From: Schmidtea polychroa
Taxonomy: Eukaryota
Length of the DNA stretch: 64,000 bases
Assembly (NCBI GenBank): GCA_044892525.1
Contig: CM097885.1
Span: 145,452,001 to 145,516,000 of the forward strand
Reading direction: 5' to 3'
In this document: positions 22,429 through 26,894 of the stretch, one piece after another
Numbering within the stretch: position 1 is the stretch's first letter
How the letters are laid out: each line of letters begins with the position of its first letter
Notes under the pieces: model-generated
The model's database searches: none
What the model was told of the DNA's origin: nothing
What the model saw: only the letters and a program-made list of their open reading frames with translations
Program-made: the position numbers and the translations under genes

Positions 22429-22588
22429 AAAGGAATATGACTGTATATAATTGTAAAAAGTAAGTATATCTTATGTATATAACAGTACTATATCTTTATA
22501 TAAGCGCGGTATCAATATTATATAATAACGGGGATAATAATATGAAATTAAAATTAGATAAGAGTTGAAAAGTGTATATAAATTAAGA

Positions 22589-22948
22589 ATGGAACAAAGA
22601 AATAACGAAATGAACCACAACACAGCAACTGAAGACCTGTGGAAGCAACAATGTGCCGTATTAGCGCAATTAGTATCGAATTTACAGGAGCAAGGACTCA
22701 CTGCGCAAAGGAACTTAGTGGATAGTATGAACAAAGGATTTAGTTATCTAAAAATAATTGAGGACCAGAGGGTACAAATCAACCAAATGCAGAGAGAGAT
22801 AGAACGACTAACCTTATACAGTCAAAGACAAGGAATCGAGATAGAGAGAATGGTAGAGGAAGCAGAACAGGCAGAAATGGAAGACTGGTTAGAATGGTTA
22901 ACCAGTAAGGAAGAGGGCGGACAAGAGGCCGACTCTTCCAGCCAATAA
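22589..22948 (+). CDS. Small coiled-coil ORF (3' cassette gene 1)
   Basis: In-frame ATG at 22589 follows the shared TATATAA..AG-A-ATG motif; element-like codon composition. Confidence 0.55.
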   Translation: MEQRNNEMNHNTATEDLWKQQCAVLAQLVSNLQEQGLTAQRNLVDSMNKGFSYLKIIEDQRVQINQMQREIERLTLYSQRQGIEIERMVEEAEQAEMEDWLEWLTSKEEGGQEADSSSQ

Positions 22949-23033
22949 ATACTACCTAAAATAAGATGTAAATAATTGTAAATAAAATATCGAACCTGTA
23001 CCGATAAGAACTATATGTATATATAATTATAGA

Positions 23034-24422
23034 ATGGATAAACGACAAAGAGAAGAGCTTAAAGAGATTGTCAAACAAGTCCGAAAGTCTGCCACGATCA
23101 GAATACACAAACACGTCATGTGTGGAATATGCGAAAAATTGTTAGAAGAACCTCGCCAAACCCAATGTGGATGCAGATTATGTAAGGAATGTATCAGCGA
23201 AGCAATAAAGACTAGACCACAGTGGTGCCCGGTGTGTAAAGAGACCCTGATATCAAGCTTAGAAGACACTAACGAAGATAAAGCCGCAGTGAAGGACATG
23301 CTAAACACAAATCTGGGATGTAAAAATACCCCATGCGAATGGAAAGGACTAATATGGAAAGTAGTACAACATATGGGAGAATGTATGTACAGAATCGGCC
23401 AGTGTGAAAGGTGCCATAAAACCATTCGAGCAAGCGAAGAAAAAGAACATCAAAGCCAGTGTGAAGAGAGACTAGAAAGATGTGAACATTGTGGAGAAAT
23501 AGATACGTGGAAAAATCTCACCATCAAACATCACAATATCCAAGAGGAAAAGGTATGTGCAGAGTTCAGTGGTGAATGCCCGAACGGATGCAACGAAAGG
23601 GGAATAATCAAACTGGCCCAACACCTGAAGGAATGCAAAAAGAAAAAAATGATATGCGTACTAGGTAAATGGGGCTGCCAGAAACTACTACACCGAGGGG
23701 AATTACCACAACACCTAACCGAAAACGCATCAACTCACGCAGAGATGTGGTCGACTGCGTTGCAAGAAAGTGAAGAAAAAGTACAACAAATGGAGATAGA
23801 AATAACGTCGCTGAAAGCATTAGTAAAAGAACTATTGGGGGAAAGAGAAGCGTTCGAAGAAGCCCGAGCAAACATAAAGATGCAAATAAACCGAATAGAA
23901 ATCATTAATAATCAGGCCAAGGTGCTACATCAAAAGATAACTGAGATAAATCTCAATGAAGTAATACCAACCGCACCCTACATATGGAAAATAACGGGAG
24001 TAAAAGAAAGAATACGAAAAGCAAAAACCGGAGAGGAGACAAAAATAACGAGCCCCGCATTCCAGTCTTGGAAAAATGGGTACAAAATGAAAATGAAGAT
24101 ATATCCCAACGGAGACGGAACCGGATTAGATACACACTTCTCGGTTTTCTTTCTGTTATGCAAAGGGGAATACGACGAAATAATAGAATGGCCGTTCCAG
24201 GCGAAGATCGACATCGCACTAATGAATGACCGAAACATCCACGAACAAAGCTTCAAGACGACGGGAAACCAAATGTGTTACCAGAGACCTCCGGAGGAAG
24301 AAGGATCAGCAACGGGAGCGCCTACGTTCATTCTACAACAAAAAGTAGAGGATATGGCGAGAAATAACACAGTATATATCAAGAAGACCGTGAGGAAAGA
24401 GGGGAAGGGTAGAACAGAGTAA
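23034..24422 (+). CDS. TRAF: Full-length intronless TRAF-family protein (RING, TRAF zinc fingers, coiled coil, MATH)
   Basis: CGICEKLLEEPRQTQCGCRLCKECI..CPVC; CKNTPCEWKG..HMGEC; WKITG..SPAF..GYKMKMKIYPNGDGTGLDTHFSVFFLLCKGEYDEIIEWPF, the TRAF2/3/5-type MATH signature. Confidence 0.92.
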   Translation: MDKRQREELKEIVKQVRKSATIRIHKHVMCGICEKLLEEPRQTQCGCRLCKECISEAIKTRPQWCPVCKETLISSLEDTNEDKAAVKDMLNTNLGCKNTPCEWKGLIWKVVQHMGECMYRIGQCERCHKTIRASEEKEHQSQCEERLERCEHCGEIDTWKNLTIKHHNIQEEKVCAEFSGECPNGCNERGIIKLAQHLKECKKKKMICVLGKWGCQKLLHRGELPQHLTENASTHAEMWSTALQESEEKVQQMEIEITSLKALVKELLGEREAFEEARANIKMQINRIEIINNQAKVLHQKITEINLNEVIPTAPYIWKITGVKERIRKAKTGEETKITSPAFQSWKNGYKMKMKIYPNGDGTGLDTHFSVFFLLCKGEYDEIIEWPFQAKIDIALMNDRNIHEQSFKTTGNQMCYQRPPEEEGSATGAPTFILQQKVEDMARNNTVYIKKTVRKEGKGRTE

Positions 24423-24612
24423 CCAATCGAATAATGTTGTATATAATAATCTGTATATATCGGTGTATATACCCAATAAAATCGTATATAATAGTAGTAT
24501 GAGAACCCCAAATATAACAACCAAAATTGAAGCGTGAAATCCACGAAAGACATCAATTGAATAATAAAATATAATACTACGATAACCTTTAATCAAATAT
24601 ATAATTTAGAAA

Positions 24613-25640
24613 ATGACCCAAGAGAAAATAACCGAAACTACGATAGCCCCAACCAATACCAACAAGACACAAATTCCCGGAGAATATAGCGAAAAGTGGA
24701 ACAAAGTAATGTTCCAACTAACTAACCTCGCCCGAAATCACATCGAGGAAATTAGAGAAGACGAAAATTGTAAATATCAGCAGAAGCATGCAAAAGAGCA
24801 TCAAAATGGGCGTCATTAGAAAATACCCACCAAGAAGCGCACAGCCACTACTTAAAACAGTTAGTGCAGGAAGCACGGAAACGATTGACTGATGAAAATA
24901 CCAAACGGGAAGTAGAAAAACAGAAAGAGGGGAGGAAAATGAATCATCTATTGGCGGAAGCAAGGAAATGGAAAAGACAGAACAGAGAAATGAAAAAGGA
25001 GATGAAAGAATTGCCCATGAGACTGGAGTATGAAAGCGAACAAGGCAAATGGGAAGAGAACTTAGTCATAAAAGAGGAACTGAAACGGCTAAGAAAGATT
25101 GCCGCCCGAAGTCAGACATGGCAGACAAAGGCCATGGAGTTTGAACGACATTTGGCAATAAAGTGCGACATGAGAGAACACGAGAATGCGGCAATGGAGG
25201 AAATGATACTTCAACAGTCTGGAAGAGTTGTGGAGCTAGTAAATAAAGTAGCAGACATGGAAAGAGATATCAATGGATATCAAGGGGCTTTAGAACAAAG
25301 GAATATGGTATTGGCTGGAAAAAACCAGAAGCTGGAAAATGAGCGAAAAATGTACCATGAAAATATTAAAAACTTAGAAATAGAAATTGAAAAATGGAAG
25401 GGCGACGAGAAAATCAAGGCCCTAGACAGACAAATAGAAGTGAAAGACGAAGAGACAAGGTATCTCACCTATCTGCTCGACGAAGAGCTGAATATCACTC
25501 GAGCTCTAAGAGACGAAATTCACGAGCTGAGGGCTCAGATTCCGCAACATTTCGTACCGTACGACCCCATTGCTATACAGTTACATTCATCGGTCGAGAG
25601 CGATGAGGGATATGTCGGCCAGGAGGAAACCTTCGTCTAG
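24613..25640 (+). CDS. Coiled-coil ORF split by a 1-nt frameshift near 24803
   Basis: Adding one A to tcaaaatggg joins 24613-24819 to 24864-25640 (..QKWASLENTHQEAHSHYLKQLVQEARK..). Confidence 0.55.
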
Positions 25641-25757
25641 AGATAGACGGAAAAGATGTAAAATGTAAAAATAGGGACCTATATCCCAACAAAAAAAATT
25701 ATTAGTAAGATAAAATTATTAACGGGACTGTAACCCAAATTATCAAACTTTATATAA

Positions 25758-26513
25758 ATGTATACGTATAAGTCGCACTATAGCGCACCATTAATTGTAC
25801 ATATTATAGATATGAAAATCGAGGAAGTAATAGAATTTATGAGCGACGTAGAAGAGGGAGAGATTGAAGCAGAAACAACAGAAACACAAACGCTAAAGGC
25901 AGAGTTATGGGAAGAGAAGTGCGAAAACGGGAGATTAATAAACAAATACCTGGAAGACCGAAAAATGATAAAGGTGTTAAAGAAAGAGTGTAAAGCGTTG
26001 GGGGAAATAAAAAGAGAAACGGAAGAGGAAAACGAATGGCTTCAGGAACAAAGGAAGCGAGGAAAAAACTGGGAAAAGATAGCGGGAGAATTATGGAAAG
26101 AAAGAGCAAGCTTTAAAGCAGAAGAGGTAATTGAGGATTACTGGAAAATTGAGGCGAAGGAACGCCAAACAGCTATAAATAAATTAAAACAACAACTGGA
26201 AGAAAACCAACGGGAAAGTAAAGAAATGAAGAAGTGGATCCGCAAATATCAAGAGATAGAAGGAAAACATCAACAACAAAATTACCTGCAAGAAAACGAA
26301 CAAGACTTCCTACAAATTGAGCTAAAAAGAAACCTTGAAAAGAAAAGGGAAGAAATTAGACGATTGGAAAAAGAAATTAGACATTTAAAGAGAGAAGCCC
26401 GTGAAAAAGACCGACAGTTAGCAATGCTACCTGAGTTGAGATATAGGGTCATTAAGGCAGAGACCACCCTAATGAGAATCACCGAAAACGATCCCCAAAA
26501 GAAAGACGATTAA
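25758..26513 (+). CDS. Coiled-coil ORF (E/K/R-rich)
   Basis: 251-aa ORF with heptad-like E/K/R composition; alternative ATG at 25812 follows AG-AT. Confidence 0.55.
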   Translation: MYTYKSHYSAPLIVHIIDMKIEEVIEFMSDVEEGEIEAETTETQTLKAELWEEKCENGRLINKYLEDRKMIKVLKKECKALGEIKRETEEENEWLQEQRKRGKNWEKIAGELWKERASFKAEEVIEDYWKIEAKERQTAINKLKQQLEENQRESKEMKKWIRKYQEIEGKHQQQNYLQENEQDFLQIELKRNLEKKREEIRRLEKEIRHLKREAREKDRQLAMLPELRYRVIKAETTLMRITENDPQKKDD

Positions 26514-26564
26514 CAAAAGAACGTCGACAATTGTAAATAAATTAAATGTTCGATGTATAACAGT

Positions 26565-26894
26565 ATGATGCGGTGGAGAGTGATAATCACCTGGATAATG
26601 TTGGCCAACAATCTGATGAGCAAGCCACAGAGTAATCCCCAAATAGATAGCCTCCGAGATTACAGAAGAAAGAACTCGAAAACCCAATCCGAATCACCTA
26701 AACCAATGTGCCATACCTTAGTGAAGAGCAAAATCATGGACAACATCCGTTCAACCCGAACCTACATCGACAATATCCGAATAATGTGCCAAGGAAACCC
26801 CCTGTGTAGAAAAATAAATAAAGTGATGGTAGAAAAATTTCCATCACCTAGACCAACTGGAAGAGCAAATACGACAGGAATACTCCGAACCTGA
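26565..26894 (+). CDS. Small ORF with a signal-peptide-like N-terminus and 3 Cys
   Basis: MMRWRVIITWIMLANNLMS; preceded by TATAACAGT-ATG like the other cassette genes. Confidence 0.4.
   Translation: MMRWRVIITWIMLANNLMSKPQSNPQIDSLRDYRRKNSKTQSESPKPMCHTLVKSKIMDNIRSTRTYIDNIRIMCQGNPLCRKINKVMVEKFPSPRPTGRANTTGILRT

Follow-up and report, generated by a model that had tools for sequence, protein, structure and literature searches.

Candidate splice acceptors and putative Pumilio sites in the five-gene 3′ cassette of a Burro-type retrotransposon from Schmidtea polychroa

Introduction

Planarian genomes harbour the giant long terminal repeat (LTR) retrotransposons known as Burro/GYPSM1, which the parts of PMC6431247 devoted to them describe as carrying a CCHC Gag, ubiquitin-like and Bcl-2-like domains and a mononegavirus-type Env between gag and pol, together with protease, reverse transcriptase, RNase H and integrase (PR-RT-RH-IN), ankyrin repeats, a TRAF/MATH module, long LTRs and accessory open reading frames (ORFs) that are either separate genes or domains of the polyprotein. 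These traits, the ubiquitin-like and Bcl-2-like domains as weak matches only, recur in an element of Schmidtea polychroa that occupies the plus strand from position 10960 to its 3′ LTR in a 64,000-nucleotide stretch of DNA (assembly GCA_044892525.1, contig CM097885.1, positions 145,452,001 to 145,516,000 of the forward strand; hereafter the window, to which all coordinates refer). By its predicted domains this is a Burro-type, env-bearing giant gypsy LTR element, an assignment based on the agreement of its domain order with that description. In the published elements, according to the same parts of PMC6431247, MATH belongs to the polyprotein in S. mediterranea and to an upstream ORF in D. tigrina, whereas here a full RING-to-MATH TRAF gene stands downstream of pol-ankyrin, in a five-gene 3′ cassette. 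Burro elements are further characterized by an unbroken polyprotein of about 4,900-5,100 aa, a BIR domain, a length of more than 30 kb and paired LTRs with a target duplication, whereas the present copy is in pieces and has its 5′ end beyond the window.

Planarian genomes contain Burro elements in very large numbers. An anti-apoptotic gene captured by one of them has been reported to help stem cells survive and to aid regeneration (Lee et al. 2026, cited in PMC13465017). The portions of PMC6431247 that deal with these elements do not address how the accessory ORFs are expressed, and the passages of PMC8532177 and PMC13238120 that mention Burro do so without transcript structure. Among literature titles and abstract openings, none concerned Burro accessory-gene expression or Pumilio elements in retroelement spacers; the primary Burro papers (Grohme 2018; Lee 2026) and their supplements lay beyond the scope of that search and may show the cassette. 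Neither the type of element nor its TRAF/MATH cargo is new, and the candidate mechanisms discussed below are all known ones; what is supplied here is the exact position of five predicted junctions, a predicted leader, a poly(A) site before the LTR and 11 Pumilio-type sites.

Complex retroviruses express their accessory genes by alternative splicing. As in these viruses and in the foamy-like fish endogenous retroviruses named in PMC6431247, several accessory genes lie here past the replication genes and ahead of the 3′ LTR, with an LTR-proximal donor and candidate acceptors just ahead of the start codons; the present element differs in being of the Metaviridae type, in its non-overlapping genes with true spacers, in the strong poly(A) signal before its 3′ LTR and in its clustered Pumilio-type motifs, and its splicing is predicted from DNA. 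The Tor elements of Oikopleura, also gypsy-type, express a downstream gene either by LTR-driven splicing, as for the env of Tor3a, or from an internal promoter located after pol, as in Tor4b (PMC4402516, in its account of env expression). These two modes correspond to the two leading models for the S. polychroa cassette, although Tor elements have one env gene and the cassette holds five non-env genes. Flatworm operons resolved by spliced-leader (SL) trans-splicing likewise consist of same-strand genes less than 300 nt apart, with an acceptor-like AG upstream of the downstream genes (in the relevant parts of PMC12582326 and PMC8629364), but they are made of host genes, mostly pairs, whereas here the poly(A) hexamers are not enriched and the gene order is known from DNA. 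Finally, the Pumilio response element, for which PMC5758885 gives the consensus UGUANAUA in the part consulted, resembles the motif described below in its exact 8-mer, its variable fifth base and its sense-strand, non-coding and clustered occurrence after stop codons; the difference is that the present sites fall in the intergenic spacers of a retroelement and are predicted.

Genes of the 3′ cassette

Element domains were called from the ORF listing and Pfam scans of the window. Between the stop codon of the ankyrin ORF (22428) and the LTR, the accessory region holds a complete TRAF gene alongside four orphan ORFs. Five genes with short gaps had been proposed in the original prediction, and this arrangement stands, with all five on the same strand, starts at 22589, 23034, 24613, 25812 and 26565 and spacers of 160, 85, 190, 171 and 51 nt. 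ORF A (22589..22948, plus strand, as are all cassette genes) encodes 119 aa that look coiled-coil. The second gene (23034..24422) encodes a full-length TRAF-type protein of 462 aa, with RING, zinc fingers, coiled coil and MATH, which matches solved chains of TRAF1/2/3 (E 1e-26 to 1e-24) and, over the RING-zinc region, of TRAF6/5 (E 7e-14); judging from these similarities the gene is clearly of cellular origin. A search with this protein gave one relative (38%), and its single-sequence structure model was poor (pLDDT 40) and was not used. ORF C (24613..25640) is split in this copy into two frames (24613-24819 and an open frame at 24774-25640) that are probably one gene, and is unrelated to the ORF of the LTR described below. 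ORF D (25812..26513) has 233 aa, or 251 if read from the ATG at 25758, and the protein-cluster search (Atlas) returned for it low-recognition unnamed clusters only; ORF E (26565..26894) has 109 aa, or 113 from the ATG at 26553. ORFs A, C, D and E match no family at the Pfam cut-off. Four of the five cassette ORFs are open over 109-462 codons although the polyprotein of the same copy is broken several times.

A Pumilio-like motif in the spacers

The five spacers share an 8-mer, TGTA[ACT]ATA (TGTANATA), present 11 times in 657 spacer nt and on the sense strand only. Spacer 1 (22429..22588) has it at 22442, 22474 and 22573, with an ATTAAA at 22547; spacer 2 (22949..23033) at 22967, 22977 and 23016, with an AATAAA at 22981; spacer 3 (24423..24612) at 24438, 24452 and 24464, with AATAAA at 24475 and 24563; spacer 4 (25641..25811) at 25796, together with two TGTAAA and a TATATAAA at 25751; and spacer 5 (26514..26564) at 26532, where it overlaps an AATAAA at 26536. 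The spacer composition would predict 0.68 copies, and none of 5000 shuffles reached 11; in 238 AT-matched stretches of the window the expectation per 657 nt is 0.15. The sense strand of 11,328 upstream coding bases lacks the motif, and the cassette ORFs contain a single copy (24769). When all 8-mers were ranked without bias, one position being left free, TGTANATA also came first, with a log10 p of -9.2 that no shuffle attained (best -6.4; 0/1500). Two further copies follow ORF E (27196) and the LTR ORF (41019), each ahead of an AATAAA.

Among the 12 matches to GTANATA the first base is T in 11, and the fifth base is variable (T in 7, A in 3, C in 1), a pattern that agrees with UGUANAUA more closely than with a TATA box or with a TA repeat. 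The UGUA core is not enriched at planarian poly(A) sites in the data summarized in PMC5068929, which makes a cleavage-factor (CFIm) reading of the motif less likely for a planarian host, and on these sequence grounds a Pumilio element is a better reading of the TGTA motif than a polyadenylation signal. The TGTANATA copies are thus probably binding sites of Pumilio (PUF) proteins, putative as they are, and this holds whichever 5′ mechanism applies. Planarian pumilio is required for neoblasts. Pumilio gating, if true, would tie the cargo of the element (TRAF signalling) to post-transcriptional control in stem cells. TGTAAA and/or AATAAA had also been proposed as a feature of most gaps; the former is indeed overrepresented (6 copies in four of the five spacers, against 1.2 expected, p 0.0006), whereas AATAAA is not (4 copies in three spacers, against 4.6 expected). 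Neither TATAWA (15 copies against 10.7, p 0.13) nor GATAA is enriched in number over spacer shuffles, and no common stable fold was found in the spacers (z -1.19 to 1.05).

Candidate acceptors at the start codons

An AG precedes the ATG of A, TRAF, C, D and E by 1, 1, 3, 2 and 1 nt, respectively, so that the candidate acceptors end at 22587, 23032, 24609, 25809 and 26563. Dinucleotide shuffles of the spacers yield a mean of 0.67 such starts out of five (p about 5e-5); with an A fixed at -3 the chance is about 0.18 per start, or about 2e-4 for five starts, and for the three starts that involved no selection (A, TRAF and C, all with the AG) it is about 0.006 under the Kozak-conditioned null. Each start had been described as preceded by TATA(T)A..AG-N1-3-ATG, of which the AG part is borne out at all five starts, whereas the literal pattern has no match in the window. 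A relaxed form, TATA-N1-7-AG-N1-3-ATG, fits four of the five, ORF D having TACA instead; when TA[TC]A is allowed, six of the 101 cassette ATGs fit, namely the five starts and 24499.

The starts of D and E were chosen in the original prediction over earlier in-frame ATGs, and the stretches thereby skipped have a T content of 0.33, closer to that of the spacers (0.29) than to coding sequence (0.17), which favours that choice. TATA-rich 5-mers and GATAA share their position relative to the AG (4 seen, shuffle mean 0.74, p 0.016), though a shared 5-mer containing G/C, such as GATAA, arises in 5% of shuffles. The GATAA copies lie 28-30 nt before the G of the candidate acceptor in three spacers (22557, 23003 and 24581) and could be a branch-point or factor site. 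GTAAG is found in spacers 1 and 4 (22460 and 25705), where it might serve as a local donor, at about the number expected from composition by a hand estimate.

Every spacer has two or three ATGs upstream of the AG (three in spacer 1, two each in spacers 2 and 3) and none between the AG and the start, a distribution that argues against scanning through the spacers. The same feature bears on a model without regular processing at the AGs, in which translation of the cassette, if it occurs, would take place on the long RNA through re-initiation or leaky scanning, or else the spacers would be left-over untranslated regions (UTRs) of captured messages, and Pumilio sites alone would act, on the genomic RNA. 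The cellular origin of TRAF agrees with this model, as do two stop-start overlaps upstream in this copy (12036-12039 and 16356-16360) and contigs that traverse spacer 1 without a joint, from a set only guessed to be RNA (see below). However, the upstream ATGs would trap re-initiating ribosomes, chance falls far short of explaining where the AGs lie and how dense the motif is, and long cassette ORFs have stayed open in a copy with a polyprotein broken several times over, so that this model appears distinctly improbable.

Internal promoters are a further, rather unlikely alternative, in which each gene would be a unit of its own, like the genes in DNA-virus arrays or the env of Tor3b and Tor4b, the TATA-rich stretch a core promoter or initiator and the AG a start context, and each spacer would combine the 3′ UTR of one gene, with its Pumilio sites, and the promoter of the next. 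Good TATA boxes are found 60-130 nt before three starts (22497, 24485 and 25751), and no long intron would be necessary. One contig of the public set X1 begins at 23020, 14 nt ahead of the TRAF ATG, though contigs cannot show a start. Transcription starts about 30 nt past a TATA box, and the shared TATA, at only 6-16 nt before the ATG, is too near to act as one; TATAWA is not enriched, as noted above; spacers 2 and 5 leave scant room for a promoter; TRAF has an out-of-frame ATG 19 nt upstream (23015); and the AG at all five starts would go unexplained. A post-pol intergenic promoter has, in any case, been demonstrated for the env of Tor4b, in the corresponding part of PMC4402516.

The LTR as a source of the leader

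The favoured, still tentative, reading is that a leader from the LTR is cis-spliced to the five alternative acceptors, giving mostly 3′-co-terminal messages that end at 27257 and are subject to Pumilio control; that the cassette is expressed in some spliced form, all models taken together, is somewhat more probable than that it is not. The 5′ LTR would act as a single RNA polymerase II promoter for a long pre-mRNA, whose short, ATG-free first exon would be joined to one of the AGs located 1-3 nt before the start codons. Splicing at a given AG would remove all upstream genes along with the two or three misplaced ATGs of the spacer, so that each gene would have its own message with a 5′ UTR of less than 30 nt, as do the accessory genes of complex retroviruses. 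These messages would end chiefly at the poly(A) signal at 27257 and at times at weaker internal sites, while read-through into the LTR would provide the genomic RNA. The TGTANATA motifs, which would occupy what little non-coding space there is, would fall within the 3′ UTRs of both the gag-pol RNA and the individual upstream messages, where the host repressor Pumilio may set the stability or translation of the element RNAs. Among LTR elements, third ORFs are typically expressed from spliced messages, as stated in the relevant passage of PMC5408684.

The 3′ LTR of this copy, about 3.9 kb long without an insertion that splits it, begins with TGTTGGG in its first part (27363..29795) and ends with CCCAACA in its second (40043..41467), both on the plus strand. 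A TATA box, TATATAAAG, lies at 27728, and a donor, GTAAGT, follows 56 nt on at 27784. From the spacing to the TATA box, transcription would start at about 27759, which would define a 25-nt first exon (27759-27783) free of ATG; no ATG is present in the whole of 27759-27990. The acceptor reading had already been put forward in the original prediction, and it gains from the LTR retroelement context and from this usable donor, all of them features of the DNA. The LTR also holds a predicted spliced gene of its own, with donors at 27784 and 27990, an acceptor ending at 40181 and an ORF of 249 aa (40192-40941) followed by its own TGTANATA and an AATAAA at 41059, from which an R region of about 3 kb would follow.

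Six LTR segments of the window were scanned: five have a promoter-like TATA, and in four of these a GTRAG donor lies 56-88 nt after it. First exons of a second LTR family, belonging to a neighbouring element, contain an ATG, and all three copies have the donor in phase 1 despite changes in length; the TGTA-containing, AT-rich surroundings of an AG at 9911 resemble the spacers, and this AG fits the phase of the LTR ORF of this family, though two of the five AGs there do so. Taken together, the Burro-type LTRs of this region look built to splice. The second family also carries an ORF weakly similar to the LTR ORF. A tandem duplication within the first exon of the LTR (27760-27829) creates a 46-nt GT-AG stretch straight after the donor, ending in an AG context that resembles the TRAF and D acceptors. 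The LTR first exon was also considered as an SL RNA of the element itself and rejected (fold z 0.07; no Rfam match at E 5 in 22300-29800).

3′ ends and the operon model

Downstream of ORF E (26895..27362, plus strand), the TGTANATA at 27196 is followed by the AATAAA at 27257, a palindromic 12-mer with a U/GU-rich tail located upstream of the 3′ LTR; an RNA ending there would be no genome, so that read-through would be needed. Among nine hexamers inspected, 27257 has the most U-rich tail (T 0.54), followed by 27121 and 41059 (0.37), whereas the spacer hexamers reach 0.20-0.33. The palindromic 12-mer (AATAAA with its reverse complement) gives a poly(A) hexamer whichever strand is read and occurs at 7789, 27257 and 41059, after a terminal accessory ORF in each case, and nowhere else in the window.

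In four of the five spacers the AG is preceded, at a distance of 22-134 nt, by a poly(A) hexamer of canonical or planarian-variant type; none was found in spacer 4. Per-gene polyadenylation is possible, although the hexamer counts lend it no support. It would be a component of an SL-resolved operon, in which cleavage at a poly(A) site within every spacer would divide a polycistronic pre-mRNA and the host SL would be added at the AG. Flatworms do have SL trans-splicing and operons with gaps of less than 300 nt (in Schistosoma mansoni the intercistronic median is 99 nt, according to the pertinent part of PMC12582326), planarians have an SL (PMC10899757, in the part consulted), and unpaired acceptors are the usual SL targets, as discussed in a section of PMC8629364. 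The spacer sizes fit such an arrangement, as does the location of the hexamers, but AATAAA is at chance level, spacer 4 lacks a hexamer and no U-rich stretch follows those of the other spacers. The SLs of parasitic flatworms end in ATG (PMC12582326), as does that of Macrostomum (PMC8629364), at least in the sequences given in the parts consulted; an SL of this kind would be in frame with only one of the five starts and would lay an out-of-frame ORF of 1-23 codons over the other four, a weak objection with a chance of 1 in 3. No SL-like loose end was seen among the 18 of 654 listed in the contig alignments described below.

The proposal of an operon with polyadenylation and SL addition is therefore weakened overall, its gap sizes notwithstanding, and resolution by the host SL seems unlikely. 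We would give equally little credit to the broader view that an LTR element carries a five-gene eukaryotic operon. In this view either the host SL machinery or the LTR exon of the element itself, combined with one poly(A) site for every gene, would release the separate messages, that of a captured full-length TRAF among them, and each would be gated by the host stem-cell regulator Pumilio. If it were true, the accessory programme of a virus-like element would be switched by the state of the cell through host RNA processing.

Contig evidence and the weight of the splicing model

Of 12 public runs listed, none with an RNA label on record, five contain part of this DNA. Four of them, all as contig sets, were aligned to the cassette; one (X1) is guessed to be RNA. 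The 30 bins considered are covered in 30 cases by X2, 26 by X1, 19 by X6 and 2 by X7, the last with a single record. X2 contributes thousands of records that are 85-99% alike, which indicates a multi-copy family. No joint interrupts the X1 contigs that traverse spacer 1, which is what genomic RNA or DNA would give. One diverged X1 contig departs from the sequence behind 22581 yet keeps TTAAG-A-ATG at gene A, with a different coding sequence after it. A contig of X6, with 43 differences over about 350 nt, has 17 A's behind 26210, 27 nt after an AATAAA at 26178 inside ORF D; it stems from a related copy, and suggests that cassette RNA exists and can be 3′-processed internally, though at a place that no model predicts.

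Several points weigh against splicing of an LTR leader to the five AGs. Splicing of the leader would need to bypass both the acceptor and the poly(A) signal of the 5′ LTR itself and to span an intron of more than 11 kb. The 5′ LTR of this copy lies outside the window. No leader or SL junction at the five AGs was present among 15 of 36 joints, all from X2, and 18 of 654 loose ends; the sole poly(A) tail seen falls inside ORF D, not at a spacer or at 27257. An AG 1-3 nt upstream accompanies 35 of the 101 cassette ATGs, and a purine occupies -3 at all five starts, so the AG signal may partly be Kozak context; moreover, the starts of D and E were selected over the ATGs at 25758 and 26553, both without the motif. 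The candidate acceptors have a scant pyrimidine tract (pyrimidine content 0.43-0.57 over the last 14 nt), that of A is AAG, and all five look weaker than the acceptor of the LTR gene at 40181.

The rest of the element and its neighbours

Upstream of the cassette, the element starts in this copy with Gag (10960..12039; Retrotrans_gag PF03732, then CCHC knuckles PF00098 in two stretches), all its coding pieces being on the plus strand. The LTR of a second element, which belongs to a related family and lies on the minus strand, cuts off the 5′ part of Gag and the 5′ LTR at 10959. A polyprotein piece with a weak ubiquitin/SUMO-like domain (12036..13487; PF00240, E 0.002) is followed by one with a weak Bcl-2-like domain (PF00452, E 0.001) and then the Env (13689..16358; PF24664), a Monjiviricetes-type viral fusion glycoprotein recognized at E 8e-73, which sits between gag and protease. 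The two weak domains fall below the Pfam cut-offs and stand in the order expected for Burro before Env. Protease, reverse transcriptase, RNase H and integrase, in gypsy order, are distributed over three pieces (16358-17608, 17633-17857 and 17930-20287), and the ankyrin-repeat ORF (20125..22428) is the last piece of the polyprotein region, its stop opening spacer 1. Breaks are found near 12037, at 13487-13689, at 16358, at 17608-17633, at 17857-17930 and at 20125-20287; the two that are stop/start overlaps, 12036-12039 and 16356-16360, may be chance breaks or re-initiation junctions. The dUTPase-like domain of Burro was detected by HHpred, as reported in the relevant part of PMC6431247; between protease and reverse transcriptase (17027-17500), Pfam gave no dUTPase-like match at E 10. 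No BIR domain was matched among the ORFs scanned with Pfam.

The best pol relatives are 50-52% identical, and none bears the Burro name. The pol alignment gathered 22 loci, all ordinary gypsy relatives at 25-48% identity, and the cassette, Env and ankyrin proteins were matched at none of them. Viral contigs searched with Env and TRAF, and metagenomes searched with TRAF, yielded no related locus, and the ankyrin ORF retrieved generic ankyrin proteins only.

The insertion that splits the 3′ LTR (29796..40036) is Maverick/Polinton-like, with 1.1-kb inverted repeats, 98% alike and with AGTAGTA ends, and a 6-bp target duplication. Its minus-strand ORFs include a RING finger (30885-31442) and an endonuclease VII (32708-34897), and the insertion ORFs scanned gave no match to a polymerase or integrase. 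An assembly gap of N lies at about 41826-42078, just past the 3′ LTR.

The second element, more decayed and also Burro-type, occupies 1-10959 on the minus strand and is nested in the gag of the first. Its LTR extends from 10959 to about 9020, next to a primer-binding-site-like stretch (near 9018-9001) that we take to be tRNA-Pro-like; a broken RING ORF near 8233-7814 lies upstream of gag (4958-4170), and MATH is placed inside the polyprotein region (1955-1485), as in Burro1. A fragment at 50500-52030 with two ORFs (50925-51656, which has no Pfam match, and 51650-52024) presumably represents the 3′ end of a non-LTR retrotransposon, which it resembles. The second family is also represented by other LTRs, solo or interrupted, at 43160-43760, 47448-49040 and 54805-60810, with the TATA, the first-exon ATG and the phase-1 donor conserved.

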